From contig DASXDM010000016.1 of the NCBI GenBank assembly GCA_036490655.1, positions 83,135-147,134 on the forward strand: a stretch of 64,000 bases of DNA. Reading direction: 5' to 3'. How positions within the stretch are numbered: position 1 is the first letter of the stretch; each line of letters opens with the position of its first letter. The DNA is from Verrucomicrobiia bacterium (GTDB lineage Bacteria; Verrucomicrobiota; Verrucomicrobiia; Limisphaerales; UBA11358). Below are positions 4,797 to 62,530 of this stretch, piece after piece. Position numbers and translations under genes: made by a program. A model generated the notes under the pieces. The model was not told where the DNA came from. It searched no databases and saw only the letters and a program-made list of their open reading frames with translations.

Positions 4797-7700
4797 AACT
4801 GACCTTGCCGAACGCCGAACGCCGAACGCCGATTTGTAAAAAACCGGCGGCATCTGCTGCATTCATCCGTCGTTCCGAGCGCGGGATTGCGCTGATCATC
4901 ACCCTGATTTTGCTCTCGGTGACGCTGGTCATGGCGGTAGCCTTCCTGGCCATCAGCAATCGCGAACGCGCTTCGGTGACCACCACGACGGATACGGCCA
5001 ATTCGCGGTTTGCCACCGATGCCGCTCTCTCCAGCGCCGAGGCGCAGATCGTTGCCAATGCGTTGGCCGGCGGCTTCAATGCCGCGGAAACGCCCGTCGC
5101 CAACCCTTACAACTTCGGCCTGCTCGTCTCCACCAATTATTTCAACGTGAATGGTTTTAATCCCAAAGACACGACCAATGACCCGGTCAATGTGAATTAT
5201 TATTATACGAGTGATAATACCGCGTATAATCAACAGGACTTTTTGCAAAACCTGGCCAATCTCTATTACCTCCCGCGCGTGCCGTTATATGTCCCGCAAA
5301 ATGGCACGAACGATTTCCGCTTCTACCTCGACTTGAACCGCAACGGGCAATTTGAAGACAGCGGGTGGGTGCCGGTTGTGACATTGAATGCCCAGGGCAA
5401 ACCCCAAACTAATACGATCAATGGAAATACTGAGTTCACCTTCGCGATGGGTGATCCACAATGGATCGGCCTCCTCGAACATCCCGGCCAGCCTTACGGG
5501 CCGAACAATAAATTCATCGCGCGTTTTGCGTTCATCGCCGTGCCTATCGGCAGCTCACTGGATCTGAATTCGATCCATAATCAAACACAGAACCAGCCAT
5601 TAGATATAACGGAGGATGGATATTTCAGAAATCAGGGCGTGGGCACCTGGGAAATTAATCTCGCCGCCTTCCTGTCGGATTTGAACACCAACCAATGGGC
5701 TCCATTGACAGGTCCTGGTGTTTATAATTATGAGCGGCCTTTCAATGTCACCTTTCCCAATTCCGGCTATGCTTTTGCCGATGCTTTTTCATTGGTAGAT
5801 TACCGGTATTCCACCATTTATAATTCGCTGGCCTCAGCCAGCAATCTGTTCAGCCCCAACAGCCTCAACTTCACCAACTATTTTGCCATCGGAAATGTTG
5901 ACGGTTATAGCGATCTGCCATTGCAAACGAATTTTGATACGAATTATAATTATTCTATTGTTAAACAAAATGTTGCCGCGTCCTGGGCAGGTGCCGACAA
6001 TACCAATCATTTCTTCGATCTGCCTTCCGACCTCTTTGATCCTGCAAAAACACTTGACGGTGTTTCCGCTCTGGCAATCTCAGGTGGAAATGATTTCCCG
6101 GCGCGATTACTGAATGCCGGTACGAACAGTAATGCCACCTACGATCGCTATACTTTCTACCGGATGCTGTCGCAGTTGAGTACTGATTCCTCCCCCGAAA
6201 CCGGCCCGGGGAATACGGCCTTGATGAATCTGAATTACGACAACATCGATTATACCAACAATTCAGCCAGCCAGACGAATTTCATGTCCTGGACGCCCAT
6301 CGCCTTCTTCACCAATGCCGCCGACCGGATGTTGAAGATGTACACGGCGCAATGGATGACGGCTTACACCAACGTGGTCACCCCCACTTCGACCAATATC
6401 TATCCGATCTTGAACACAAATTATGTGGTCGCGTTCAACATGACCAACATCTTTGGCATCACGAACATCCCGGTCCTGGTCAGCAACCGGCTTGTTTACA
6501 CGCCTGCGGTCAATCGCGTGCTGCAACTGGCGGCCAACTTGTATGATGCCACGACGACGAATTATTATCCCTCGGTTTTCCGCCCGCTGTTTTTGGTGAC
6601 CAACCAAAACGGTTTCTACAATGTCTTCATCACCGGATATACCAATATCGCTTATGTCACTGGCACGAATGATCCGCAACTGGATCCGCCGGTGGATTTG
6701 GCGTCCATCCTTCTTCCGACGCCGGACCCGGCCATCCTTCTCGCCGGCCCAAATCTGGCGACGAATATTTACGGCATACCATGGATCATCGGCGCCAAAA
6801 AAGGATTCCCCAGCTTCAACGAATTTGTCGGGGAAAACATGGTGGGCATGACCCGGCGCTTGCAATTCGTGCGGGACGTCACTGGCGCCACCGTTAACAA
6901 AACCATCCCCATCCAGCAAACCAACCAGATGTATATGGTCAGCGTGAACACCTCGGGCGGACTGGATTTCTGGAATTCCTACACCAACCGGCTCAACGAT
7001 ATCGTGACCGTGAATTACCGTGTGGTCACTTTTCTGTCGCTCACCAATAGCGATGCGAGTGTTGCGGGCGACGCCGGCGGGCAAGTTCCCAGCCAGCCAA
7101 CGACGTTGGGATATTTCAGCTCAGGTTCCACTTCATTTTCTGCGTGGCCCAGTTCCGCGCCATGGATCGGAGGCCAGCCGAACACCAATTCATTTTATGT
7201 TCCATTGAATTTTATCGCGTTTATAAATCTGTCGAACTCGGTCTATCGCACGCCGAATGCAGGGATGACGCCGGGCGCCATGCCGCCGGGTTATCCTTAT
7301 GGGCCTCCCGCTTTAGTTTCAACAAATTATTTTGATAATGGAGCACCGATAACGGCGGTTTTTGAAAACAATCGGCCCGTCGGCCAGCCATTTTATTCTG
7401 TGCCACAATGGGGTCTGCTGTCGACGAATGCCATGCAGGTGTACATTCTGGACCGGGATTCCGGAGGAACGAACCATGTGATCGACTATGTCCATATGGA
7501 ACAGTCGGGAAGCCAAAATCTTAATAGTGAAATTTTCAGTGATGATACGAGTGGTGTTTGGAACACCAATATAAATCCAAAATACGCCATACCGTGGGGC
7601 ATCGATAATCAAATTCTAATTTCAGAAGGCTTGGTAAATGTTCAGTCAGAAGACGGTAATTGGCAGGCCGATCCGGAAGCTGCCACGTATAGCAGTTCGA

Positions 7701-9286: not shown

Positions 9287-12200
9287 ATGCGTTCACGAGT
9301 GAAGATGTGGATCCTGTTGAGCCTGCTGGGCATTGGCGGCGCGTGGATCTTTTGGCATATGGAAAACGGGCACATGCTGAGGGCCGGGCGGCAGAGGCCT
9401 TTGCCGGTGATGTCTTTGGCCTCCAGCGCGCCCCGGTTGACGAAAGCGTCGCTGGCGCAAAAAGCGGCGCAGTTGACGGCCTCGCGGACCAATCTCTTTG
9501 CCTACCGGCTGAACAACACGGGGAAGACCCTGGAACAATTGTTGCATGACCCGCATGCGATCCTGCTGGAGAATGCGTTGATCGATTCCCGCCGTCCGTT
9601 GGGCCTGACATTTCCGAAGTCGTTGCAGCGGCAGGGCGATCCCGGGGCGTACCTCGTGCAGGCGCGGGGGGTGGACAGCGGCGCATTTCGCGCGATGCTG
9701 GCGGCCAACGGGGCGAAGGTCATCTCTTATATCCCCAACAATGCCTACCTGGTGGAAGCTTCGGCGGGGATTGCCGGCACGGTGGCGCAAAATCCGGCCA
9801 CGCAAGCCGTGTTGCCCTACGAGCCCTATTACAAGGTCCAATCTACGCTGCTGGGCGCGGCGACGGCCCAGACCATTTTACCGCGGAACGCGATCCTGAC
9901 GCTGGGACTGTTTCCGGACAACGCGGCGCAGACTATTTCGCAGATCCAGAACCTGGGGGCGCAGATCGTTTCGGAAGACAGTTCGCCTTTTGGGCCGGTG
10001 GTGCGGGTGATGCCGCCGACGGATTGGACCGCCCTCGCCGATTTGCCCGGGGTACAGATTGTTGAGCCGTCGCATACGCGTGTTCATGCCAATGATTTGA
10101 GCCGGGTGACCACAGGAGTATCGGTGGACACCCTGGTAGCGACCAATTACCTGGACCTGAGCGGTCTGAACGTGATGGTGGACGTGAACGACTCGGGCAT
10201 CGACCAGACGCATCCGGATTTTACATTGAACGGCAATGCCGCCTCCGGGCCGAGTGGTCCCACCCGGGTGACGGGTCAATTTGCGGGGGATTTGGTGGAT
10301 ACAGACGGGCATGGGACGTTTGTGGCGGGGGAGATCGCGGGTAACGGGAGCGAAAGTCATCCTCCGGGCGGTGTGAACGTCGGGGCGGCGGCGGAAGGCT
10401 CGGTGACCAACGCGGATTTCCGGGGCAAAGCGCCGGCGGCGATGTTATTTGCGGTGGACTTTCATGGCAGCGACAGCAATTTGCAGGCGGAGGCGGCGCT
10501 GACGAACGCATTGATCTCCAACAACAGTTGGGTCTATAGCGGGGACCAGACGTACGACCTGGCAGCGGCCAGCTATGATGCGGCGACGCGCGATGCGTTG
10601 CCGTATACGCAGGGGTCGCAACCGGTGTTGTTTGTATTTGCGGCGGGCAACGACGGTTTTGGGCAGATCGGGGGCAACAACAACACGGCAGACACCATTG
10701 ATTCGCCGGGGACGGCCAAGAATGTGATCACGGTGGGCGCGTTGGAAGAGGCGCGGAACATCACGAACTATGTGACTGTGGACGGGGTTTCCAACCAGGT
10801 ATGGGCGGGGATCACGGCCAATAATTTCCAGGTGGCGGATTTTTCGAGTTGCGGGAATGTGGGGATCGGGATGGAAGGGCAGTTTGGGCGTTTCAAGCCG
10901 GACGTGGTGGCGCCGGGGACCTTTGTCGTCTCGACGCGTTCCTCGGAATGGGACACCAACGCTTATTACAACCCGACGAACTATGATGACAGCATCCTGA
11001 CGAACCTGGTGGTGGGGGCGGGCCAGCTCGAATATTTCGGCCTGTCGATCCCGCAGAATGCGATCAGTGTGGAGATCGAGGCGCTGCCCTTCAATCCGGC
11101 GAACACCCTGTGGATCTATGCCAGCGACAGTGATTTTCCGGATCCGGCCAATCCGACCTCCGCTGATTTTTCTGAAACGAACGAGGTCCTGATCCCGCCG
11201 GACAATCCGCCCAACAGCACTTCGGCGACTTATTTGAGCGAGATCCAGGCGACGGTGTTGAACTACGCGATCGTCAATTCGAATGCGCAGGATGTGGCTT
11301 ACGACCTGTTCACGCAGATCGCGACGACGAACGACAACGGCGATTATTATGATGTCCTTTCGAACATGAACGACAGCCTGGGGCCGTATTACCGGTATGA
11401 GACGGGCACGAGCATGGCGGCGGCGGATGTCTCGGGGGTACTGGCGTTGATGCAGGATTACTTCACCAACCATCTGCAACTGCAGCCCAGCCCGGCGCTG
11501 ATGAAGGCGCTGCTGCTCAACGGCGCGCGACTGAGCGATGCCGAGCTCTACAACCTGCAGGTCAACAACACGATCAATTATGAGGGCTGGGGGCTGGTCA
11601 ACCTGCCGAACACCCTGCCGCCGGATATCACGACCAACGGGTTCAACGGCGCGGTGGCCTCCTCGATCTATTTCCAGGACCAGAGCCCGACCAATGCCCT
11701 GGCGACGGGGGACCTCCACACGTACACGCTGATTGCCCAGACCAACAATGAGCCGCTGCGCCTCACGCTGGCCTGGACCGATCCGCCGGGCAACCCGGTG
11801 GCCGCCATCAAGCTGGTCAACAGCCTCCAGCTCACGGTCACCAACACGGATAACCCCACCAATATCGTGGTCTATTACGGCAACGACATCGGGGAGGCCA
11901 GCGCCTTTAACACCGCGGAAAGTCCGACGAACCCGGTGGCCCCGGACACGATCAACAACGTGCAGACCATCATCATTCCCGAGCCGCTGGGCACCAACTA
12001 TACGATCACCGTCAAAGGTTACCGGGTGAATGTCAACGCGGTGGTCGAGCAGACCAACAACATCGTGCAGGATTACGCGCTGGTCGTCAGCAGCGGCGAT
12101 GGCGACGCGACGGGTTCCTTCACGGTCGTGGACCAGGGCACCGTCTCCAATCCGGCCGGGGACCAGGACATCCTGGCCATCGGCACCACGAACGCGCCGG

Positions 12201-49683: not shown

Positions 49684-49801
49684 ATGGCCGCAAAATCTGC
49701 CAATGATTATCTGACACTCATCGCGCGACTCCTCCTGGGGCTGGTCTTTTTCGTGTTTGGCCTCAACGGCTTCCTGCAATTCATCCCGCAACCCAAAGAA
49801 A
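49684..49801 (+). pseudogene. 5' fragment of a DoxX-family membrane protein gene, interrupted by a transposon
   Basis: MAAKSANDYLTLIARLLLGLVFFVFGLNGFLQFIPQPKE then reads into the IS end and stops at 49858-60. The N-terminus parallels the intact paralogue at 53617-53988. Confidence 0.8.
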
Positions 49802-49960
49802 GGGGACTATATACTTATTCACCCTTGGTTATTTTGGGTGAAATTTTCTTTTGTTCTTGACATGCCGCCACAGGCTGTCACGATGCCATTCTCCGCGACG
49901 GCGGGGTTAGAGAGGAAGGTGGTGCCAGATGAGGGTACTGTAGTTTTTTGTACGAACCAC

Positions 49961-49987
49961 GGGCCGCAAGACGTTGCGGCCCCTTTT
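49961..49987 (+). terminator. Perfect 9-bp hairpin plus T-tract inside the transposon's left arm
   Basis: GGGCCGCAA-GACG-TTGCGGCCC then CTTTT. The orientation fits a plus-strand transcript; its function is unclear. Confidence 0.35.
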
Positions 49988-50005
49988 GCTCTCTGGCACC
50001 AAAAT

Positions 50006-50131
50006 TCATGATGATTTCTTCTTGGGTTTTCGGGGTTTAAGTTTCCGTGCGCCGCTGCCGCAGGCGATACAGGTTAAAATACTGCTGAAGGTTCCCTTGA
50101 TTGGCTGGATGATTTTCTTCTTCTTTTTCAT
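50006..50131 (-). CDS. Candidate 41-aa basic micro-ORF translationally coupled to the transposase
   Basis: Minus-strand ATGA: the transposase stop (50130-50128) overlaps ATG 50131-50129. Translation MKKKKKIIQPIKGTFSSILTCIACGSGARKLKPRKPKKKSS. Confidence 0.25.
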   Translation of the reverse strand: MKKKKKIIQPIKGTFSSILTCIACGSGARKLKPRKPKKKSS

Positions 50132-51048
50132 GCTGTCAAACTTTCGTAAGTTAATTGACCAGTGTCGGCTGCGCTTTGAACTGCGCCGTGGAAAATTCTC
50201 TGCGGTGGATTCAATCGGTTGTTAAACCGGACAACAAACTCGTCAACGTAGCGTTGAAGGTGTTTCTTGCTCATGCTGTGATATGTTCCGTGATAACCTC
50301 GTTTGAATAAAGCCCAGAATGATTCGATTCCGTTGATGTGGGCTTTGCCGCGAACGTATTCTCCAACGCCATGTTGGACAACACCGCGTTTGTAAATTCT
50401 GCCAAGCCGGTTATAACCCATCCACTCGTCAGTATAAAGGGTGGCGCCGCGAGCCATGTTCGATTTGAGTTGATAGTGGAGAGTGTCCATACCTGTTGAT
50501 TCGATAACTTGGGCGCGGACTTTGCCAGTTCGCGTGCGGAGACCAAAGATGGGAACCTTTCCATACGTTCCCCTGCCTTTCATTATCTCTCGCCGACGGC
50601 GACTATGCATGTTTTTGGCTTTGCCGCCGATGTAAGTTTCATCAGCTTCGACTTTACCGCGCAGCTTGCGGGTTTCCTGCTTGTGAGCCTTGCGAATCCG
50701 GTGCGCCATAAACCAAGCGGTTTTCTGCGTAACTCCCAGATGTTTGGAAAGTTGGATTGACGACATTCCTTTGGCGCTTGATGAAAGCAGGTAAATTGCC
50801 ATAAACCATTTTCGGAGTGGTAATTTACTGTCTCCAAATATCGTACCGGTCTTGATAGAAAAGTCTGACTTGCACCCGGCGCAGCGGTACCGTTTACCGC
50901 CGGAGAATTTATAAATCTCGGCATGTTCACAGTACGGGCAATATTCCCCAGCGGCGAATCGGATTTTGGCAAATTCCTTACGACAGATTTCCTCAGTATG
51001 GAAATAATCCATAAATTCCACGAGACTTTTGAATTTGAATTTTATCAT
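50128..51048 (-). CDS. IS1595-family (ISXO2-like) transposase
   Basis: N-terminal zinc ribbon CPYCEH...YRCAGCKSDFS, then LPLRKWFMAIYLLSSSAKGMSSIQLSKHLGVTQKTAWFMAHRIR, and DDE region ...VEADETYIGG...LYTDEWMGY. Confidence 0.9.
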   Translation of the reverse strand: MIKFKFKSLVEFMDYFHTEEICRKEFAKIRFAAGEYCPYCEHAEIYKFSGGKRYRCAGCKSDFSIKTGTIFGDSKLPLRKWFMAIYLLSSSAKGMSSIQLSKHLGVTQKTAWFMAHRIRKAHKQETRKLRGKVEADETYIGGKAKNMHSRRRREIMKGRGTYGKVPIFGLRTRTGKVRAQVIESTGMDTLHYQLKSNMARGATLYTDEWMGYNRLGRIYKRGVVQHGVGEYVRGKAHINGIESFWALFKRGYHGTYHSMSKKHLQRYVDEFVVRFNNRLNPPQRIFHGAVQSAADTGQLTYESLTA

Positions 51049-51090
51049 TTTTGACTTTAGGTTGTTATTTAAGTTTTACCAAGTAACGAA

Positions 51091-51354
51091 ATGCAAATTT
51101 TATTCGTCTGCGAAAAATCCGAAAATGCGTCAGAAGACGCTTGGAATAGATTCGTATCGAAAGTTTCAGATATTCCAGAAAATAAATCCTCGCCATCGCT
51201 ACGTAGTATGGAGGTTCTGTCACTAATTCAGAAAGATTACGACGGACTGCTTCTGAGCAAAATGATTTCCGCCGCCGAAGTTGCGCGGTTCCCATATAAA
51301 TTGATTTTTATTAAGGAATATTCGGAGAAGGATTTTAACCCGTCTCACCTGTAA
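51091..51354 (+). CDS. Hypothetical protein (87 aa), transposon passenger
   Basis: ORF only, in low-GC passenger DNA. Confidence 0.3.
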   Translation: MQILFVCEKSENASEDAWNRFVSKVSDIPENKSSPSLRSMEVLSLIQKDYDGLLLSKMISAAEVARFPYKLIFIKEYSEKDFNPSHL

Positions 51355-51357
51355 AAG

Positions 51358-51858
51358 TCATTTTAGTAAGATTAATTCTGTTGTGATTGGAATTTTATTG
51401 GTCACAGTCACGCCATATACCCAGGGCGTACCATAGTCGTAAAGTTCAAGCTGTCTGCCGTCCACATTCACAACGCCAATACGCAATGCGTATGCTTCAA
51501 TTTTCTGACCTTCCGCCACATCAATTATAGCGTCTGGATAATTAGTTATTGCGACTGTTTTCGTGTCGAACGGTTTCGCGTTTGGGTCAAATTCAAACGC
51601 CTCTGCCTCTGCAATAACCAACCCGTCTTCAACATTGTTAACATTCCCTAATATGGTATAAAACCCAGGAAAGCCGTTGCGGGTTTTAATTAAATCATCG
51701 AAATTAAACACCTTATTTCCAAATCTTCGGAAATTATCCGGCGCTTTATACCAATTTGTTGTGAGTGCAGTTTTGAAGATGGTATTCGTCGTAAATTGGT
51801 TGGTTTGGGATTTTGTTGAGATTGCAGACAACAAAAGTATTGCCAGAATAGTTTTCAT
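51358..51858 (-). CDS. Hypothetical secreted protein (166 aa), transposon passenger
   Basis: MKTILAILLLSAISTKSQ signal-like N-terminus. The start at 51858 lies 11 nt after the upstream gene's stop. Confidence 0.5.
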   Translation of the reverse strand: MKTILAILLLSAISTKSQTNQFTTNTIFKTALTTNWYKAPDNFRRFGNKVFNFDDLIKTRNGFPGFYTILGNVNNVEDGLVIAEAEAFEFDPNAKPFDTKTVAITNYPDAIIDVAEGQKIEAYALRIGVVNVDGRQLELYDYGTPWVYGVTVTNKIPITTELILLK

Positions 51859-51868
51859 TTTGAGCCTG

Positions 51869-52234
51869 TTAAGGTTTTCCAGATTCATCCATAGTAGATG
51901 GTTGATTGACGGCCAAACGAAGGTCGGCAACATCCAAATCGACCATATTGATTCCATTTGTGAGAATGCTGTAATCGGAATCCTCTACCGAAGCCAAACT
52001 GGCCTGACAACTTGACATAAGCTCAAAGTTGCTTTCCTGGGATTCTGACTTAGTTTCCAAAAACTGGACGCGCTGGATTAGCTGTGAAAGTTCGTTTGTT
52101 AAATTGTTTACAGTTTCGACTCCTTGGGTTGATTGTTTTTTATCGGCGTTTAAATCTGGCGTCCTGAACTCTGATACAATCAATGCTGTCAATGCCGCTA
52201 TGATTCCACTGATTATGTAATTGGTGACTTTCAT
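51869..52234 (-). CDS. Hypothetical N-terminally anchored coiled-coil protein (121 aa), transposon passenger
   Basis: MKVTNYIISGIIAALTALIVSEF anchor. ATG at 52234 lies 20 nt downstream of RNA-motif copy 1. Confidence 0.5.
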   Translation of the reverse strand: MKVTNYIISGIIAALTALIVSEFRTPDLNADKKQSTQGVETVNNLTNELSQLIQRVQFLETKSESQESNFELMSSCQASLASVEDSDYSILTNGINMVDLDVADLRLAVNQPSTMDESGKP

Positions 52235-52253
52235 ATTTGTTTCGTTTTGAAGC

Positions 52254-52404
52254 GGGAAAAGAAAAGGCGTGCAGCCAGCACACCCGATTAGAGGGCTGCA
52301 ACGCCCTGAAGAAAGATGCACCAAGCCACACGCCAACTGGCGTGGAGCCGGTCAAGGGGTTCTTCGAGAAATGTTGCAGTTTCTAATCGCCCTTACCGCT
52401 TCAC
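52254..52404 (-). ncRNA. Conserved structured-RNA-like motif, copy 1 (unassigned family)
   Basis: Minus-strand sequence is nearly collinear with 57536-57685. Long-range pair CGAUUAGA/UCUAAUCG. Terminal hairpin GGUGUGC-UGGCU-GCACGCC followed by UUUUCUUUU. Confidence 0.5.
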
Positions 52405-52671
52405 TAAAATGTCAATTTAAGGATATTGGAAGGGTTGACTCAGGCAAGCTCATTTTGTTATTGACAAGGCGTTTTGAAACACCAAACTGCGGCTGTCCGC
52501 GCAAGGGTGAACGCGGAGTGAATTTGGGCGGGGTTGGAAAAACGTTTTGCTCATTCGCATAACGCTTATTTTCTTATGACGAGAAAGTAATTACCAACCC
52601 CGCCCGCCTAAAATCATACTTTGACCCGTTTTGTGGTCAAGGGTGAATAGGTATATAGTTCCCCAAAGAAA

Positions 52672-52961
52672 TGCCGCCCGGCGCAGCCGATTTCTTCGGC
52701 GCGCTCATGAAAACCGGCTACATGATCCCGCTGATTTTCGCGACCCAAACCCTCGGCGGCGCCTTGCTCCTGCTGAATTGTTTTGTGCCGCTGGCCCTTG
52801 CGTTGCTCGCGCCGGTCATCGTCAACATCATCCTCTTCCACCTGTTCATCGCGCCTTCGGGGATCCCGATCGCATCCGTCGTGGTGGCGCTGGAACTCTA
52901 CCTGGCCTGGTCGTATCGGCGGTTTTATCTGCCGATGCTGGCGTGCCGGGCCAGGCCCTGA
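52672..52961 (+). pseudogene. 3' fragment of the interrupted DoxX-family gene
   Basis: Joining 49684-49801 to 52672-52961 restores one 135-codon frame ...FIPQPKEMPPGAADFFGALMKTGYMIPLIF...LLAPVIVNIILFHLF..., collinear with the paralogue (FLPMPPMQGPGAAFMGAMFETHY...GPVVVNILCFHTF). Confidence 0.8.
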
Positions 52962-53534
52962 TTATTTTTTCAACTTCAAGGCGAATTGGGCGACGCGTTT
53001 GCCGAGTACTTCGCCGGTCAATTTATCGGCGTCGGTCGGCGCAACGTCGGTGGGTTCTTGTCCCGCCTGACCCATCGCCCCGCTGAAACTGCCGAGACGG
53101 TTCACGCCGTTGGGTTGCATCGGCATCTCGCCAAGACCCACCCAGACCATGCCGTGTTGCATGGCGAGCGTGAAAAAATATTGTAACGTGCTGAATTTGT
53201 CGCCGCTTGGGCTGCTGGAAACACTGAACCCGGAGGCGATCTTGTCACGCCAGGCAGAGCCGAACCATTTGCCGGCGGTCGCGTCGGCAAAGGTCTTGAA
53301 CTGACCCGCCGGGCCGCCCATGTAAGTGGCACTGCCAAAAATGATCGCGTCGCTGGCATCGAGTTTGGCGAAAACTTCGTCGTTCTTATATCGTCCCTTG
53401 TTGATGTCATCACCGTTGATGGCGATGAGATGGGTTTTAACGGACGCGACGGACGCGGCGCCCTTTTGGACGGCTTCAGCCAGTTTGGCGGTGTGGCCGG
53501 AGCCGGAAAAGTAGATGATAGAGATAGTAGGCAT
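52962..53534 (-). CDS. Flavodoxin-like NAD(P)H:quinone oxidoreductase (WrbA-type)
   Basis: ISIIYFSGSGHTAKLAEAV...AIIFGSATYMGGPAGQFKTFAD... Confidence 0.85.
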   Translation of the reverse strand: MPTISIIYFSGSGHTAKLAEAVQKGAASVASVKTHLIAINGDDINKGRYKNDEVFAKLDASDAIIFGSATYMGGPAGQFKTFADATAGKWFGSAWRDKIASGFSVSSSPSGDKFSTLQYFFTLAMQHGMVWVGLGEMPMQPNGVNRLGSFSGAMGQAGQEPTDVAPTDADKLTGEVLGKRVAQFALKLKK

Positions 53535-53616
53535 AGGTTTATTAGCGGTCTTTGTTTTAATTGGTTTCAAAAAAATCCACAGGTCGTTTACACAGCTGAT
53601 ACACTACGCAAAACTC

Positions 53617-53988
53617 TTATGGTTTAACAAGACCGGCGAAATTCTGCCGGTAACTCCAGAGCAGGAAAAGCGCGAGTGCGGAAACAACCAGTGCGATGGG
53701 TAACCCCGAATGATCCATAAAAGTGTGGAAACACAGGATGTTCACAACCACCGGTCCAACCAGCGTGAGGCCGAGCGGCACGTAACGGCCGATCAGCAGC
53801 AGCAGTCCGCCGGCAACCTCGCATGTGGCGACGACATAAAGGTAATGCGTCTCAAACATCGCCCCCATAAAGGCAGCGCCGGGACCCTGCATCGGCGGCA
53901 TGGGAAGGAAATGCAGGAACTTGTTTGAGCCGAAGACGACAAACACGAGGCCGAGCAACACACGAGCGATGATAGTCAGGATTTTCAT
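53617..53988 (-). CDS. DoxX-family membrane protein (intact paralogue)
   Basis: MKILTIIARVLLGLVFVVFGSNKF...four TM segments. Confidence 0.85.
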   Translation of the reverse strand: MKILTIIARVLLGLVFVVFGSNKFLHFLPMPPMQGPGAAFMGAMFETHYLYVVATCEVAGGLLLLIGRYVPLGLTLVGPVVVNILCFHTFMDHSGLPIALVVSALALFLLWSYRQNFAGLVKP

Positions 53989-54024
53989 ATTTTTAATTGT
54001 AGTTTAAGTGGAGGGGCCGGAGTT

Positions 54025-54678
54025 TCAGATATTGAGAAAAACCCGTTCTTTGGGAAAACGGACTTTCGGCGCTGTCGCATATTTATCCGTCGGCAACCGG
54101 TAGCCGAGCGTCGCGATCACGCCGCTGGCGAACCCTTGCGCTTTCAAACCAAGGATTTCATCGTATTGCGCGCGGTCAAATCCCTCCATCGGACAGGCAT
54201 CGATGCCGAGCAAAGCGGCGCTGGTCAAAAGATTGCCCAGGCCGATATAAACCTGGTTGCGCGCCCAGGCATTGCGACCGGCCTCGTCCTGGCTTTGCAC
54301 GATGCCGCCGACCAGCATGCCGCGTAACGGCGCCAGCGCTTCAACCGGAATCCCCTGCACTCCGGCGATATGTTTGACATGGGCATCCACGTCTGCCTCG
54401 TTGAAATTGGTTTTTGAGGCGAATACGACCAGATGCGAAGCATCGGTGATCTGCGCCTGCCCGTAAGATGCCGGCTTAAGTTTTGCGCGAACGACGGGAT
54501 CGGTGACGACGATAAATTTCCACGGCTGTAAACCGCCGCTGGAGGGTGTCAGCAACAATGCTTCCTCCAGCGTGGCCCAGTCCTGGGAATTGATTTTTTT
54601 GTTAGGATCAAACTGTTTGGTGGCGTAGCGCCAATTGAGCTGATGGATCAATGTTTCCGGAGTGATACTTGTGTTCAT
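54025..54678 (-). CDS. Nitroreductase-family NAD(P)H oxidoreductase
   Basis: LNWRYATKQFDP...LLLTPSSGGLQPWKFIVV...GIDACPMEGF. Confidence 0.9.
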   Translation of the reverse strand: MNTSITPETLIHQLNWRYATKQFDPNKKINSQDWATLEEALLLTPSSGGLQPWKFIVVTDPVVRAKLKPASYGQAQITDASHLVVFASKTNFNEADVDAHVKHIAGVQGIPVEALAPLRGMLVGGIVQSQDEAGRNAWARNQVYIGLGNLLTSAALLGIDACPMEGFDRAQYDEILGLKAQGFASGVIATLGYRLPTDKYATAPKVRFPKERVFLNI

Positions 54679-54763
54679 GATCTAATTTTGTTTCTTTGTT
54701 TTTTTATTTAAATTTCGGCTGGAAAAATTGAAGGCAACCGGTTTCCCGATTGCCTTCATCTGT

Positions 54764-55459
54764 TCAGTTCAAGTCGAACAACAAAACCTGTGACGGTTTG
54801 TTGGCCGAGAGTTCCAATTTCGTTTCCTGGCTCACCGCCGCCGCGTCCCCGGCGGAAAGCGTCTTGCCGTTCAACACGACTTCGCCTTCAGCGACATGGA
54901 CCCAGGCATTGCGGTTGGCCGCAAGCGCATGCGCGGTCTTCTGTCCCGCATCCAATTTCGCCAGCCACAGGTCTGCGTCCTGATGGATGGCGATCGAGCC
55001 ATCGCGGCCCGTCTTGCTCGTCATCAGGTGCAATTGGCCCGTGGGCGTGTCGCGCAGGGTCTTCTCCGCATACCGCGGCTTGAGACCCTTGGCATCGGGC
55101 ATGATCCAGATCTGCAACAGGCGCACCGCCTCGTCTTTCGACGGATTGAACTCGCTATGTTGCACCCCGCTGCCGGCGGACATGTATTGCAGGTCGCCCG
55201 CGCGGATGATACTGCCGTTGCCCATGGAATCCTTGTGCTGGAGCGCGCCACTAAGCACATACGTGACGATCTCCATATCGCGATGCGGATGGGCGCCAAA
55301 GCCCTGCCCCGGCATCACCAGGTCGTCATTGATCACCCGCAGGCTGCGGAACCCCATCCAATTCGGATCATAATAGTCCGCAAAACTGAAGGAATGATAA
55401 GTGTCCAGCCAGCCATGTTCGGCGTGGCCCCGTTCATTTGCTTTTCGTATAGTCATCAT
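54764..55459 (-). CDS. Pirin-family protein
   Basis: RKANERGHAEHGWLDTYHSFSFADYYDP...GFGAHPHRDMEIVTYVLSGALQHKDSMGN. Confidence 0.9.
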   Translation of the reverse strand: MMTIRKANERGHAEHGWLDTYHSFSFADYYDPNWMGFRSLRVINDDLVMPGQGFGAHPHRDMEIVTYVLSGALQHKDSMGNGSIIRAGDLQYMSAGSGVQHSEFNPSKDEAVRLLQIWIMPDAKGLKPRYAEKTLRDTPTGQLHLMTSKTGRDGSIAIHQDADLWLAKLDAGQKTAHALAANRNAWVHVAEGEVVLNGKTLSAGDAAAVSQETKLELSANKPSQVLLFDLN

Positions 55460-55468
55460 GGAAAGACT

Positions 55469-55912
55469 CTACCGCGCGCCTGTGATCCTGTGAAATATCA
55501 TGTTTCTTGCCTTAGTATAACTTAAAGGTATACTGCCCGTCCACATTGGTGCGTGGTAGGGTGAGCATGTGGAATTTAAAACCAAAGAATTGTCCGGATC
55601 GACTCGAAGAATTGGAAGCGAGTTTGCGTTTGTATCGATTGGAGAGATTGGGTTTATAACTGACAACAAGGGGCTGGCAGATTTAATCATGGCTTTGAAT
55701 CGGGTTCTGGAGGAGGACGCCGCTTTCCCATTCGTGGAAGAAACCTGTTTGTCCCAAACCAATCTTCCGCAGGATACTTCATCAAAAAAAACCCGCTGAT
55801 GTAAAAGAATTTGCTCCTCCGCCTCTGAATCATTCGTTCCCGGTGGCAGATCAAAATAAGTTCCAGTCTCATCGTCCACATAACGTTGTTCATTTATTTT
55901 CCGTAACTTCAT
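55469..55912 (-). CDS. Hypothetical protein (147 aa); the 3' end runs across the transposon's left terminus
   Basis: ORF only. Its last ~20 codons lie outside the IR boundary, so the native C-terminus is uncertain. Confidence 0.3.
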   Translation of the reverse strand: MKLRKINEQRYVDDETGTYFDLPPGTNDSEAEEQILLHQRVFFDEVSCGRLVWDKQVSSTNGKAASSSRTRFKAMIKSASPLLSVINPISPIDTNANSLPILRVDPDNSLVLNSTCSPYHAPMWTGSIPLSYTKARNMIFHRITGAR

Positions 55913-55924
55913 TCCTCAAATAGT

Positions 55925-56959
55925 CTAGCGAGCAGAAAGAAGTTCTTCAACCGTCCAAACGTGGTCAGTCAGTCCTGCCGCCATTGCTGGCGTCATCCCG
56001 ATAGCACTGTGAACACGGCAGAAGTTAAAATGAGCAACGAACAAGGCAACAGCATGGCGATGGTTTTCGGTCTTCTTTGAGAAATTGATAGTCCGACGAA
56101 CAAACCTGCGGTTAAACGTCCTCAGGCTGAGGTTTGTCCGCTCACAATGGCCGATGGTGGCGTGTTTCATGTCAGGATAGCCAATGCGAGGACTGCGATA
56201 CACTTTGACCAGTTTTGGGGCGAAGAAGACGCGGTTTCCTGTATAACGTGGATCGGTCCTGAAACGCTTGGTCTCCGTCGCGTAATGGCAGTTGTCACCC
56301 AGAATGTCCTTAACCGCCCCAGCGCTTCCATGAAGTGCCACATATCCTCTGAATGAGTCGGTGGTGAGTTGGAACCGATTGGTGATGCGTGAGCCTAAAT
56401 CCTTCAAAAACCCTTCCGTTTCCTCGCCTGTGCGTTTTCCGACCCTATAACTGACAATCAGCTTCTCGTCCTTGGCGACCGCCAGGAACGTCCACATTGA
56501 ACCGCGCTCTGGGTCATCCTCATTCTCACCGTTGGGCTTCTGTTTGATATAAGAGAACACCTCGTCGCATTGGACATATGGAATGGTCAGGTTTCGGACT
56601 TTGGAATCCAGCAGACGGGCGCAATGCTCTCCAGCAGATTCAAGGATGCGTAAAACCGTATCTTCGTCCACACATGCCAGCCGGCCAGCCGCACGAATAC
56701 CGACCGTCTCAGCCAGCATTGAGACTATCTGAGCCGCCTTGGCGCGATCTGTGCGTATGCCATCCAAAGGCTGCGTTTCACTGAAAGACTTGGCACAGCG
56801 GATGCACTTGAACCTCTGGACAGTCCCATTTCGATTCTTGAAACGACCACACTTTTTCACCTTTCCGCTACAACAATGACAGTTCAATTTCTCCTTTCTT
56901 AATATCGTTGACTTATGTTTAACATAAGTTAGTCTCAATGCAAGACTTTTGTTAAACAA
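55925..56959 (-). CDS. IS1-family-like transposase (fused zinc-finger + DDE form)
   Basis: CHCCSGKVKKCGRF...FKCIRCAKSF zinc-finger. HTH-like region. C-terminal HCERTNLSLRTFNRRFVRRTINFSKKTENH...FNFCRVH, typical of IS1 InsB. No in-frame ATG near the 5' end: the track start is a TTG, and an alternative TTG at 56887 is preceded by AAGGAG. Confidence 0.65.
   Translation of the reverse strand: MFNKSLALRLTYVKHKSTILRKEKLNCHCCSGKVKKCGRFKNRNGTVQRFKCIRCAKSFSETQPLDGIRTDRAKAAQIVSMLAETVGIRAAGRLACVDEDTVLRILESAGEHCARLLDSKVRNLTIPYVQCDEVFSYIKQKPNGENEDDPERGSMWTFLAVAKDEKLIVSYRVGKRTGEETEGFLKDLGSRITNRFQLTTDSFRGYVALHGSAGAVKDILGDNCHYATETKRFRTDPRYTGNRVFFAPKLVKVYRSPRIGYPDMKHATIGHCERTNLSLRTFNRRFVRRTINFSKKTENHRHAVALFVAHFNFCRVHSAIGMTPAMAAGLTDHVWTVEELLSAR
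56911..56929. promoter_or_regulatory. 9-bp perfect inverted repeat ACTTATGTT-T-AACATAAGT between the divergent transposase and RHH genes
   Basis: Read directly from the sequence. Lies in the 5' region of the IS1-like transposase gene. Confidence 0.35.
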
Positions 56960-56963
56960 AACT

Positions 56964-57146
56964 ATGAAAAATAAAATGGGCAGACCTCAAATTGTGCCAG
57001 GTGAGTCAAAAAGCATCCTGATTGGGGCAAGGTTCTCCCCTGACGAATCAAAGAGAGTTCACACCGCTATTGGCAAGTCTGGGAAAACGAAGTCAGAATG
57101 GGTCAGAAAGACCTTGCTTTCGGCGGCTGGCAAAGATACTGTCTAA
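56964..57146 (+). CDS. Small RHH/MobC-like DNA-binding protein (60 aa)
   Basis: MKNKMGRPQIVPGESKSILIGARFSPDESKRVHTAIGKSGKTKSEWVRKTLLSAA: GRP...beta-strand...two helices, like CopG/MobC-type proteins. Confidence 0.45.
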   Translation: MKNKMGRPQIVPGESKSILIGARFSPDESKRVHTAIGKSGKTKSEWVRKTLLSAAGKDTV

Positions 57147-57535
57147 GCATCTCGGCGACCCCAAGTTGCCTGTCGGCGGACGAAATGAACTGTGCAAAAG
57201 GAAATTTCGTCCGCCGTTTTATTTTCTTGGCGACTGATTCTGGCGTCATCAGCCCCCGCGTTATATCCAGGCCATAAAAGTCCCGCTCCTCTCGCCGGTT
57301 GAAACCCGTTGTAAGACTGGCGGGCGGCAATCAGAGCGGTAAATTACTTCATTGATGTTTTACGCTTTCAACAGCGCATTACCGATCAAATCGGCAACAA
57401 TCAGCATCCTCTCATTGTTCTGATTTATGGTCAATAATTTATTAACGTAAAGTGCTTATACAAAGCGGATTGTATAGAGCATTGGATGGGCTTGACTATC
57501 ACACTCAAACCGGATTGTATGGTTATTGAAATTTA

Positions 57536-57685
57536 GTGAAGCGGTAAGGGCGACTAGAAATTACAACATTTCCGAGAGAAACTCCCCTGCCACGCTCCAC
57601 GCCCATCGGGCGTGTGGTTTGGCGCATCTTTCTCAAGGGCGTTGTAACCCTCTAGTCGGGTGTGCTGGCTGCACGCCTTTTCCCT
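57536..57685 (+). ncRNA. Conserved structured-RNA-like motif, copy 2
   Basis: GTGAAGCGGTAAGGGCGACTAGAAA...TCTAGTCGGGTGTGCTGGCTGCACGCCTTTTCCC. Pair CGACUAGA (57551-58) / UCUAGUCG (57651-58). Terminal hairpin 57659-57677 plus a U-tract. Confidence 0.55.
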
Positions 57686-57730
57686 GTCTTGCTTCAATAA
57701 TAAATGACAGAAAACACATAAAATCTTAGA

Positions 57731-57869
57731 GCACACAGGAACTATCACATTCTTAAAAGAAGACTCTGCTCCAACGCGGGAAACCGGGCTTGGCGTGTAA
57801 TTGCAATGCATTCTTCTTGGGCTGTGATAGGCCTCTGTGGGGTGTGTTCGGTTGCACGCCATTTTTATT
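57731..57869 (+). ncRNA. Conserved structured-RNA-like motif, copy 3 (tandem with copy 2, more diverged)
   Basis: CACAGG (57734-39) / UCUGUG (57834-39). Hairpin GGTGTGTTCGGTTGCACGCC (57841-60) plus ATTTTTATT. Ends 20 nt before ATG 57889. Confidence 0.45.
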
Positions 57870-57888
57870 GCTCTGATGGAAGGAAGTT

Positions 57889-58086
57889 ATGAAAAAGATA
57901 TTGGTCGCTATTACCTGCATGCCGTTGATCCAAGGTTGTGTCGTTCAAAGAATAATGGATTCTCAGGATCGACAACATTATTCGGAATACCTGGAACAAG
58001 TGGATCAAACCAATTTGGAGCGCGAGAAATCCCACCTGCCCGACGAGAAGCCGATGGCGTTCGATGAATGGGATGGTAAAAAATAA
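57889..58086 (+). CDS. Small lipoprotein (65 aa)
   Basis: MKKILVAITCMPLIQGC lipobox. GGAAGGAAG Shine-Dalgarno-like sequence 3-11 nt upstream. Confidence 0.55.
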   Translation: MKKILVAITCMPLIQGCVVQRIMDSQDRQHYSEYLEQVDQTNLEREKSHLPDEKPMAFDEWDGKK

Positions 58087-58093
58087 GGGACAT

Positions 58094-58453
58094 ATGCCAT
58101 CCGATTTCCATTTTGCCACAGCCATGATAGAACTGGTCGAGAAAAGACCCTCTCAGGGACTTCTGGCTCGATGCTATTCCGAAGCCGAAGGAGATGAAGC
58201 TAAGGCAAGGGCAAAATACGTTGCCATGCGAGCCAAGGAAATTGAGGAGCAGGAAGAAGCCGCCATCAAACAGTATGAGCAACAGGTAAAGAGAAAGGAA
58301 TCGGAACGCCAAAAGGTGATTAATTCTTTCAATTTTGAAATGTTCCAAAAAGAATACAAGCGTGAAATACCACTCCGCTATTATGGCCGAAAAGAGCAAC
58401 AGGATATGTTCAAAGAATGGAGAAATCGGAAGCTGAGAGAAATGGAGGCGTAA
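58094..58453 (+). CDS. Hypothetical protein (119 aa), charged coiled-coil C-terminal half
   Basis: ATG at 58094 preceded by AAGGGA. Tight packing with its neighbours. Motif GLLARCYSEAEGDEAKARAKYVAMRAKEI. Confidence 0.45.
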   Translation: MPSDFHFATAMIELVEKRPSQGLLARCYSEAEGDEAKARAKYVAMRAKEIEEQEEAAIKQYEQQVKRKESERQKVINSFNFEMFQKEYKREIPLRYYGRKEQQDMFKEWRNRKLREMEA

Positions 58454-59469: not shown

Positions 59470-59820
59470 TTTGCCTGAAAATGTTACCCCATCCCGTTCA
59501 TCGGAGATTTCAAATATTTTTGCCGCCACAGCACCAATGTGGACGGGCAGTATACTTAAAGGTATGGTGTCCATCTAGATTGGTGCTGGAATTTATCGCT
59601 TGCGTTTCCCACGCCGTGGCTCAGCTTTGGAACGTTAGTCTGATTCCAATACCAATGAAAAATATCGTCCTCGCAATCGGTTGCTGGCTATTGAGCTTGT
59701 TCTTTTTCTATTTCGGAATTATTCACTTCATAAAACTTACACGGACATCCCCTGATGCCACGGTGTAAAATAGGTTTATACAGTACCCCTGCATCCCGGT
59801 ATTATATAGGGTGTTAGACC

Positions 59821-60997: not shown

Positions 60998-61372
60998 CTA
61001 TTTTCCATCTTTTTCTTTGTCCCATCCAATTTTAAATCCAGCCTTATAGCCATTCATCCAATCTTGGCGGTCTCCTGCATTATCAAATTTCATGTCAGCC
61101 GTATCACGACGGCCTTTTGAATCAAATTCTTCATCGGTTGGATAAGAATCTCCTCGATTATAGGCAGCTATTCCATCAACTGCTCCAATCCATGCGCCGG
61201 ACTCAAATACGCTGTTTGTACCAGATTGTGACGTTTGGTCAGATGAATTAGTATTTTGGTTGGATTGAGACGTAGTGCTCTGGTCAGGCAATAACGAACC
61301 AATCAAAATAAGAAGTGTAAAACTGACAATGACTCCAACCACAATTTTAGCCCAAAGAGGCAATTTTTTCAT
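60998..61372 (-). CDS. Hypothetical N-terminally anchored S/T/N-rich protein (124 aa)
   Basis: MKKLPLWAKIVVGVIVSFTLLILIGSLL anchor. ATG at 61372 lies 41 nt downstream of RNA-motif copy 4. The longer track ORF reads through the motif. Confidence 0.5.
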   Translation of the reverse strand: MKKLPLWAKIVVGVIVSFTLLILIGSLLPDQSTTSQSNQNTNSSDQTSQSGTNSVFESGAWIGAVDGIAAYNRGDSYPTDEEFDSKGRRDTADMKFDNAGDRQDWMNGYKAGFKIGWDKEKDGK

Positions 61373-61412
61373 ACATTGAACCCTTTCTGGATGATTAGCG
61401 ATTGGAAGATGA

Positions 61413-61552
61413 CAGGAAAAAGGCGCGAACCTGACGCACCCAGCTAGAGGCACTTGGAAGAGCCCGCCACAAGACACGCCAAGCCGCGCCCAGTGAGGGC
61501 GTGACTCGGACGGGTTTGTGGTATGAAAGTTTCCAAGTTTTCTAGCCACCCG
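61413..61552 (-). ncRNA. Conserved structured-RNA-like motif, copy 4 (most diverged)
   Basis: Minus strand: GGCUAGA/UCUAGCU long-range pair. Terminal hairpin GGUGCG-UCAGGUU-CGCGCC plus UUUUUCC. Shares CUAGAAA, CACGCCC, UUGGCG, CUCUAG and CGCCUUUU blocks with the other copies. Confidence 0.45.
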
Positions 61553-62233
61553 TGACCGACCTACGCTAAATTGTTATGTCGGCCATAACCATCCCAAGAG
61601 GGTGGAAATTGTCAACAAATTTTTGACCCTGAGCGAGAAAGTGAATTTATGAGAACAGTTATCGTATTCGCAGAATTGCCAAAAATGACCGATACAGTCT
61701 CAACCATAACGAGATGGCAAGATTTTTTGAAAAATGCAGAAGGTTCCTACAGGCCAACCGCAGAAAGTGCCCACCCGACCATAAATCTGTGGCAGCTACC
61801 CTTAAATAGTGGATTGCCATTCTTGGCCAAGTTATTTCAGTTCTCGGAACTTTATCAAATTCCCATTCATGCCCTAATCTTGGACGAGCCTCCAGAGTGG
61901 ATAAAATATCCCCCAACCAGTTAAGAATTTTGCTTTCTTTCATGAAGACCAGAACACTTTCCGTCATTCACCCTGACAGACTCTCAGGATGCCAGTATAA
62001 CAAAAGTTTTATGAAGTGAATAATTCCGTTCTATTTTATCCGAAACACCATCCAAATGGGATATGTGCGGTCACGCGGTGGGCTGGTTTTAACGAGAAGC
62101 AAAAACCCATTCCAGTTTTGGGCGGGAGTTGTAGCCTTATTTTTAGGTGCTGCTTTTCTCATTGTGTTCGGATTAATCGTCATTTTCGGAAAGGTTAAAC
62201 TATGAGATTACATCAGCCGCGCTGGAGCCAACA

Positions 62234-62349: not shown

Positions 62350-62530
62350 TTCTGCCGTCCCTGCGGGACTCAATTTGATTTAAATTCTAACCCCACCGAT
62401 AAATCGGTGGGCTATCGCCTATCGGCCTCCGGCCTTTTGTTAGCGCCTTCGGCGCGACCGACAATAGCCCGCCGTTTCAACGGCGGGTGGCGGTGGCAAT
62501 AGTGACGGAGTCCCGTTAGGGACGGCAGAA
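62350..62530. repeat. 181-bp MITE-like element with 22-nt terminal inverted repeats and three internal hairpins
   Basis: TTCTGCCGTCCCTGCGGGACTC (62350-71) versus reverse complement of 62508-62530 = TTCTGCCGTCCCTAACGGGACTC. Internal hairpins CCACCGAT-AA-ATCGGTGG, GCGCC-TTC-GGCGC and CCGCCG-TTTCAA-CGGCGG. Confidence 0.55.

Follow-up and report, generated by a model that had tools for sequence, protein, structure and literature searches.

Our analysis of a 64,000-nucleotide stretch of contig DASXDM010000016.1 (the window, below) indicated that a structured RNA motif carried there by an IS1595-family transposon belongs to a widespread and apparently undescribed family of putative leader RNAs, which, across one order of Verrucomicrobia, is linked to the genes that mobile elements carry as cargo. 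The family is a real structured-RNA family and is absent from Rfam; the words 'leader' and 'terminator' are used below for the motif as labels that we infer from the sequence.

The preliminary description of this locus placed a first copy of the motif (copy 1) at 52254-52404. This copy proved to be real, and a covariance model (R1), which was built from five sequences including copy 1, matched it at 52252-52410 (135386-135544 on the contig), within 6 nt of those borders. The features of copy 1 and of its carrier, which we designate IS-A, are as follows.

49794-49801, no strand: left target-site duplication CAAAGAAA, an 8-bp direct repeat
49802-49827, no strand: left terminal inverted repeat, 26 nt, 92% complementary to the right one
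50128-51048, minus strand: IS1595-family transposase, 306 aa (Pfam DDE_Tnp_IS1595, PF12762, E 1.1e-40; Zn_ribbon_IS1595, PF12760, E 1.6e-07)
51091-51354, plus strand: 87-aa ORF of ordinary composition between the cargo and the transposase, no Pfam match, uncertain as a gene
51358-51858, minus strand: passenger gene 2, 166 aa, signal-peptide-like N-terminus, no Pfam match
51869-52234, minus strand: passenger gene 1, 121 aa, N-terminal membrane anchor, no Pfam match
52252-52410, minus strand: structured RNA motif copy 1 (R1, 171 bits, E 7.6e-41, model positions 1-161; itself one of the five seed sequences of R1)
52391-52408, minus strand: conserved 5' single-stranded segment UUUAGUGAAGCGGUAAGG, at which the homology between loci starts
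52382-52390, minus strand: 5' strand of P1, GCGAUUAGA, pairing with 52285-52292; each P1 pair covaries in the family
52373-52379, minus strand: 5' strand of P2, CUGCAAC, pairing with 52296-52302; 7 of 7 pairs covary
52360-52365, minus strand: 5' strand of P3, pairing with 52308-52314; 5 of 5 modelled pairs covary
52329-52344, minus strand: apical hairpin P4, CACGCC-AGUU-GGCGUG, stem conserved in sequence and loop variable
52285-52302, minus strand: 3' strands of P2 (52296-52302) and P1 (52285-52292), separated by a CCC internal loop
52257-52284, minus strand: terminator-like hairpin GGUGUGC-UGGCU-GCACGCC, then UUUUCUUUU (terminator scan)
52638-52663, no strand: right terminal inverted repeat, holding an inward-pointing promoter-like sequence, TTGACC-16-TATGAT
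52664-52671, no strand: right target-site duplication CAAAGAAA, which reads TTTCTTTG on the minus strand

IS-A is an IS1595-family transposon of 2,862 bp (49802-52663). Since copy 1 lies within the inverted repeats and the 8-bp target duplication around them is intact, the motif, the cargo and the transposase transposed as one unit; the insertion is fresh, and the motif was inserted with the rest as one piece. The duplication has the size known for the IS1595 family (8 bp; ISfinder). As had been described, the motif precedes the two-gene passenger unit within the inverted repeats, pointing at the cargo and ending 17 nt before the first start codon, and the joint mobilisation of motif and cargo that was proposed from this arrangement holds for this element, in which the inverted repeats and the target duplication enclose the motif, the cargo and the transposase. 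IS-A resembles the IS1595-family insertion sequences with passenger genes (ISfinder subgroups) in having a transposase of the zinc-ribbon plus DDE_Tnp_IS1595 type, inverted repeats at both ends, a target duplication of 8 bp and passenger DNA of 1-3 kb; no structured leader RNA was found described for such passenger genes in the literature searched. The passenger proteins of IS-A had no homologue in the sister loci, in 61 foreign contexts of the motif or in the rest of the own genome. The sister elements of the IS-A type share an ORF of 51-54 aa (MSRPQK..PIKGDF..) just 3' of the transposase (L237, 2421-2585; L239, 2415-2573; L240, 950-1108, minus strand; L242, 2696-2851; L244, 1331-1486, minus strand); in IS-A, no more than a faint trace of this ORF is left, at about 50051-50095 (tblastn, E 0.033).

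The RNA of copy 1 is about 160 nt long and consists, from 5' to 3', of a conserved single strand, a long and irregular rod formed by P1-P4, immediately after it a terminator-like hairpin, and a U tract. The minimum free energy was -61 kcal/mol with a z-score of -3.4, and copy 2 (see below) gave a z-score of -4.5, both being far stabler than shuffled sequence. In copy 1, the terminator scan detected a G+C-rich hairpin of 8 pairs with a loop of 5 at 52285-52265, followed by the U tract TTTCTTTTCC, and the terminal hairpin with its T run was called terminator-like in copies 1, 2b and 3. The U.G pair of this hairpin stem is retained in 33 of 35 family members. Directly upstream of copy 1 there was no good match to a sigma-70-type promoter, and the best candidate, some 200 nt further up, is part of the right inverted repeat; in many other copies of the motif, a TTGAC box is present at about 40 nt upstream. 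The stretch that separates the motif from the right inverted repeat contains a 12-bp G+C-rich inverted repeat, GGGCGGGGTTGG ... CCAACCCCGCCC (52594-52605 and 52526-52537, minus strand), whose two arms enclose about 56 nt and could form a further structure on transcripts begun in the transposon inverted repeat. A 9-nt repeat, TTCAAAACG, which flanks copy 1, was rejected as an element boundary because it does not recur at other copies.

A search of the own genome with R1 detected five copies of the motif, all of them in transposons with inverted repeats at the ends, of which there are four, and no full-length IS1595 element in this genome was without a copy. The other copies in the window are as follows.

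57530-57691, plus strand: motif copy 2, in an IS1-like transposon whose perfect inverted repeats are 25 nt long (55528-55552 and 59531-59555)
57723-57874, plus strand: degenerate tandem copy 2b, without P4, in the same IS1-like element (R1, 48.5 bits, E 2.3e-9)
61408-61572, minus strand: motif copy 3, in a second IS1595 element (IS-B) whose inverted repeats are perfect and 25 nt long (59714-59738 and 62004-62028), with a target duplication of 8 bp, TTCTATTT

A further full copy is present on another contig (C2), in a 4.2-kb element which has inverted repeats of the IS-A type and a third IS1595 transposase.

The near-identity of copies 1 and 2 that had been noticed was borne out by the alignment, in which the 5' 22 nt (TTTAGTGAAGCGGTAAGGGCGA) and the terminal hairpin (GGGTGTGCTGGCTGCACGCCTTTTC) are identical, and a repeat search found that the two copies share blocks of 41 nt and 74 nt (93% and 91% complementary, respectively). 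The paired change reported in the long-range helix was likewise recovered as one double change in P1, U-A to C-G (GCGAUUAGA/UCUAAUCG in copy 1 versus GCGACUAGA/UCUAGUCG in copy 2). P2 contains two further double changes, C-G to U-A and G-C to A-U (CUGCAAC/GUUGCAG in copy 1 versus UUACAAC/GUUGUAA in copy 2). Pairing is kept by all three double changes, and the two copies, folded separately, take an identical shape in which the P1-P4 rod is followed by a G+C-rich hairpin of 7-8 bp and a U run.

Copy 3 precedes the gene of a 124-aa anchored protein, whose true start is probably the ATG at 61372. The longest ORF at this place (60998-61549, minus strand, 183 aa) reads through the motif, and loci with the motif are prone to mis-annotation of this kind, in which gene callers add false N-terminal extensions through the RNA. 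At 59529-59588, two related ends of IS1-like transposons stand back to back with 6 nt between them, the second being part of an element truncated by the insertion of IS-B or by a deletion.

Matches of R1 were found in 83 of 151 genomes of the genus (1-5 copies per genome), in 57 of 151 genomes of the order, representing 48 of 107 genera, and, with weaker scores, in 8 of 150 genomes from the rest of the phylum. Independent members of the family, which were not in the seed, scored 50-165 bits. A pattern scan of contigs gave 80 loci, 27 of which were chance matches in G+C-rich genomes and were removed by using R1; an association with phages was rejected, as the two pattern matches in viral contigs were both due to chance. 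The members found by pattern are labelled Verrucomicrobiota, subdivision 3 or Limisphaerales, apart from a few with other labels, which may stem from errors of binning. True R1 matches of 66-84 bits (L165, L168, L172, L127, L126, L133 and L190) lie on contigs labelled Bifidobacterium, Akkermansia, Methylovirgula, or Limnocylindrales or Acidobacteriota MAGs, which could be due to mis-binning or horizontal spread.

We examined the covariation in alignments made with the model, which lean towards the structure of R1. The predicted partners were paired in 94.8% of the cells with 35 sequences and in 95.2% with 53 sequences, as compared with 69-75% in shuffles and 26-55% with slid partners. Changes on both sides were observed at 25 of the 34 pairs (35 sequences) and 21 of the 34 (53 sequences); within P1-P3 they affected 20 of 20 and 19 of 20 pairs, respectively, often with four pair types. 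None of 500 shuffles reached the observed covariation score. In contrast to P1-P3, which vary freely, P4 and the terminal hairpin have stems of near-constant sequence and variable loops. Many members of the commoner subfamily (B-type) have an extra small hairpin near the 5' end, which copy 1 does not have. Neither a conserved AUG nor an ORF, as expected of a leader peptide, was present in the family consensus.

Rfam 15 (4,227 families), searched at the gathering score over the whole window, matched only the Acido-Lenti-1 RNA (RF01687) at 62442-62487 and left the motif unmatched. Relaxing the threshold to E 10 for the region 51800-58200 gave a single match overlapping the motif, suhB/mmgR, with 16.7 bits versus a cut-off of 41 (E 8.3). 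The literature searched contained no account of an RNA of this kind. The Acido-Lenti-1 RNA itself (minus strand, 41.9 bits) lies within a low-G+C mobile island.

A gene follows the motif on the same strand in 64 of 65 contexts, with a median gap of 32 nt. A gap of this size (17 nt at copy 1) leaves no space for a separate promoter, and the cargo should therefore be transcribed through the motif. About two thirds of the downstream genes encode a hydrophobic or lipoprotein-like N-terminus or a membrane span, a small zinc-ribbon membrane protein being a recurrent type, and others were assigned by Pfam to N6/N4 DNA methylases, a type ISP restriction-modification fragment, a PLD-SNF2 nuclease-helicase and DUF932. 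The downstream proteins are mutually unrelated and too varied to hint at a ligand.

Mobile DNA is frequent around the motif. An IS1595 or IS1-like transposase was found within 6 kb, mostly within 2 kb, of 11 of the 61 foreign copies, whose contexts were taken from longer contigs and are thus biased against repeats. By an informal estimate, given about 1.5 IS1595 genes per 4-Mb genome, well below 1% of random sites would be expected within a few kb of such a gene. At distances of up to 4-6 kb there were also phage-type integrases, a TrwC relaxase, excisionase-type HTH proteins, DUF3987/CHC2 primases and DNA methylases, and, in a rough count, a hallmark of mobile DNA was near at least half of the foreign contexts. 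In one contig (L069, G109:C22), two copies of the motif (6001-6163, plus strand, and 9411-9577, minus strand) converge at a distance of 3.2 kb; the genes after them encode exported proteins of 230 aa and 680 aa, and a phage-type integrase gene is located immediately beyond the second copy, upstream of it and outside the pair.

The preliminary description had tied the motif to its transposon, and related elements bore this out in part. Four IS1595-family elements of other genomes (L094, L113, L095 and L062) do hold the motif between their inverted repeats, which in two cases are like those of IS-A and IS-B. Five sister elements with inverted repeats of the IS-A type, however, contain 1-1.3 kb of other passenger DNA and no motif, and of the 29 transposases of the genus that are most similar to that of IS-A, just 2 are accompanied by a motif at a distance of up to 1.5 kb. 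As the other 27 have none at this distance and the sister cargo differs, the motif as an obligatory part of the IS-A lineage was ruled out. The earlier reading is thus supported for this element, but the motif is no hallmark of its transposon lineage. In L062 (G161:C58, 5756-7916), the 2.2-kb IS1595 element has a motif with a decayed terminator, which points outward to the inverted repeat without a cargo gene, and looks like a remnant after loss of the cargo.

Among members of a subfamily, the similarity between loci runs from AATTTAG to about 12 nt past the U tract, and the promoters, downstream genes and flanks are unrelated. Because the similarity is confined to the RNA, the shared homologous unit is the RNA alone and not the RNA with its cargo; and since sister elements and transposase relatives mostly do not have it, the motif belongs to cargo units taken up by many kinds of mobile element rather than to one transposon backbone. 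A miniature transposon or a cassette site was ruled out, as the borders of the homology coincide exactly with those of the RNA and the unit lacks repeats of its own.

For the function of the family, the reading that we prefer, and to which we give about an even chance of being right, is that the RNA would be the 5' leader of the cargo transcript and act as a conditional transcription terminator (attenuator) by an exchange of arms between P4 and the terminator. In the default state, both of these hairpins would be formed, and most transcripts would end at the U tract. When a signal at P4, which might be a protein, a small molecule or another RNA, opened or occupied this hairpin, the 3' arms of P4 and the terminator would pair with each other, or else their 5' arms would do so; the terminator would be prevented, and RNA polymerase would enter the cargo. 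Such a device would act in cis and independently of the downstream sequence, and would give a portable control of expression in front of the unrelated cargo of transposons and integrative elements.

Several observations point to the exchange of arms. The P4 stem (CRCGCCC / GGGCGYG) and the terminator stem (GGGUGYG / CRCGCC) are one duplex capped at opposite ends, and their U/A versus C/G state always changes jointly. In copy 3 and in L038, the complementarity of the 3' arms of P4 and the terminator is kept despite an A.C mismatch within P4. The duplex energies calculated for about 127 sequences were -9.9 kcal/mol for the two 3' arms and -9.65 kcal/mol for the two 5' arms, as compared with -9.9 kcal/mol for the terminator itself and -5 to -6.6 kcal/mol for shuffles. 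The conservation of these stems, with loops that are free to vary, is expected of a strand that must pair with two partners. On the other side, the exchanged-arm helix crosses P1-P3 and could form only as a pseudoknot or if the rod, which is under clear selection, were unfolded; the default fold is about 8-14 kcal/mol stabler than the terminator-free folds; and P4 and the terminator changed jointly in very few independent events (two subfamilies and two exceptions). Note that the U tract is short or interrupted in many B-type members, so that the hairpin may be a weak terminator there or none. Pairing of the 5' segment with the tail beyond the terminator, which would close the structure with a further helix, gave no signal (-4.90 versus -4.79 in shuffles).

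A wider form of this reading is that the family would be a portable RNA sensor of mobile elements, riboswitch-like or protein-responsive, which ties the cargo of transposons and ICEs (surface proteins, restriction-modification and other defence genes) to a cellular signal in Verrucomicrobia through an undescribed arm swap across a long rod. We put this forward tentatively, as a possibility that we doubt more than we credit.

The great stability of the default fold relative to any terminator-free fold would also suit a constitutive insulator or stabiliser, that is, a fixed leaky terminator which damps read-in from flanking host promoters and keeps the cargo at a low constant level, with a 5' structure that protects the mRNA and with no switching. 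Most transposon-borne copies lie near one end of the element and read inward, as would be consistent with this role, but the motif is also found deep inside elements, reading outward (the IS1-like element and the C2 element). Moreover, a plain terminator needs neither a 125-nt rod with conserved internal loops nor stems conserved in sequence, and the interchangeability of the arms of P4 and the terminator is left unexplained. We consider an insulator unlikely.

The regular presence of a same-strand gene shortly after the motif bears on another explanation, according to which the 160-nt terminated transcript is a stand-alone small RNA, acting in trans (for example, through its 5' single strand) on targets in the transposase, the host or competitor elements, and the downstream gene is a mere neighbour. 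The extent of the conservation matches a unit from promoter to terminator exactly, the 5' segment is conserved and unpaired, and regulatory RNAs derived from transposons have a precedent in the 5' UTR of IS200. However, the close spacing in nearly all contexts excludes an own promoter for the gene and implies expression of the cargo through the motif, and the start region of the transposase showed, by eye, no convincing complementarity to the motif. A small RNA of this type is, in our view, very unlikely.

Mobile elements are known to place cis-acting processive antiterminator RNAs at the start of operons (PMC11658703; conAn2, PMC13401043), and the motif could be one of these, similar to put of HK022, EAR or canT of Tn916, with the rod binding its own polymerase and making it resistant to the following hairpin and to later terminators. 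Its position at the very start of the transcript, with a terminator immediately after it, and an action independent of the downstream gene would fit. Nevertheless, many of the units are single short genes, for which processivity is unneeded, no Rfam antiterminator family matched the motif, and the relationship between P4 and the terminator is not explained, making this reading very unlikely.

Finally, an element acting as DNA (an Frpo-type single-stranded-DNA hairpin promoter, an attC-like recombination site or a miniature transposon), which is suggested by a long imperfect hairpin in front of varied cassette-like genes, including types of plasmid or ICE leading regions (DUF932, methylases), is scarcely credible, since the four-to-one excess of G.U over A.C (188 versus 43) and the terminal-hairpin U.G kept in nearly all members identify the sense strand as the folding strand and make a single-stranded-DNA structure unlikely, a T run follows the hairpin, the unit has neither terminal inverted repeats nor target duplications of its own, viral contigs gave no true match, and we know of no passage of DDE transposons through a transferred single strand.

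Returning to the conditional terminator, a close parallel in architecture is the zipper attenuator cATTpLS20 of conjugative plasmids, which is also a mobile-element leader with a long imperfect stem-loop and then an intrinsic terminator before the first gene of an operon (PMC13401043). In that system, the 3' strand of an upstream hairpin pairs with the 5' strand of the terminator and lengthens the rod (PMC13401043), and B-type members of the present family also have a small hairpin 5' of the rod. In contrast, cATTpLS20 belongs to Gram-positive hosts and to conAn1 and conjugation operons, whereas the motif precedes varied cargo and copy 1 has no upstream hairpin. An antiterminator of the zipper type was tried and rejected for the motif: the pairing of the 5' segment with the 5' arm of the terminator hardly exceeded that of shuffles (-5.99 versus -4.64 kcal/mol), and with the whole terminator the values were -11.5 versus -10.4. 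No contiguous extension of P1, as a zipper requires, was seen on inspection. In Tn916, a Gram-positive ICE, an insulator terminator, T1, and a cis-acting antiterminator RNA, canT, are separate elements (PMC11658703). Like these, the motif would combine termination with RNA-based control of read-through near one end of a mobile element, over the element's own genes; unlike them, it is a single compact module in front of cargo and not of transfer genes.

Similarity to riboswitches with terminator platforms is seen in the conserved structured domain at what would be the 5' end of the mRNA, its covarying stems and conserved internal loops, and the sequence-constrained arms of the putative terminator. 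The classes of c-di-GMP riboswitch precede varied genes of the cell surface and of mobile elements. On the other hand, the motif is rod-like without a multi-helix junction, has no match among the 4,227 Rfam families, and has a gene context without a hint at a ligand. Among the features of a riboswitch platform, the structure and a terminator-like hairpin are present, and the exchange of arms is energetically matched but topologically awkward.

RNA-OUT of IS10 and the 5' UTR RNA of IS200 are, like the motif, structured RNAs encoded inside insertion sequences. They reportedly control, or derive from, the transposase mRNA; unlike them, the motif precedes cargo, can converge with the transposase, and is mostly away from any transposase. 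A type III toxin-antitoxin system was also considered and rejected. Systems like ToxIN combine tandem short RNA repeats with one toxin family, whereas the motif is a single structured unit and the proteins downstream of it are unrelated.

RNA families with such covariation, and with a spread over about half the genera of a large order, now seldom turn up undescribed, and in the phylum Verrucomicrobia experimental RNA biology is, to our knowledge, almost absent. The motif offers a compact object of 160 nt for a possible new mechanism of attenuation. As the motif is tied to the cargo of transposons and of integrative elements, mobile DNA may bring along a gene-independent control module for its passengers, which would bear on how newly acquired genes are silenced or switched on.
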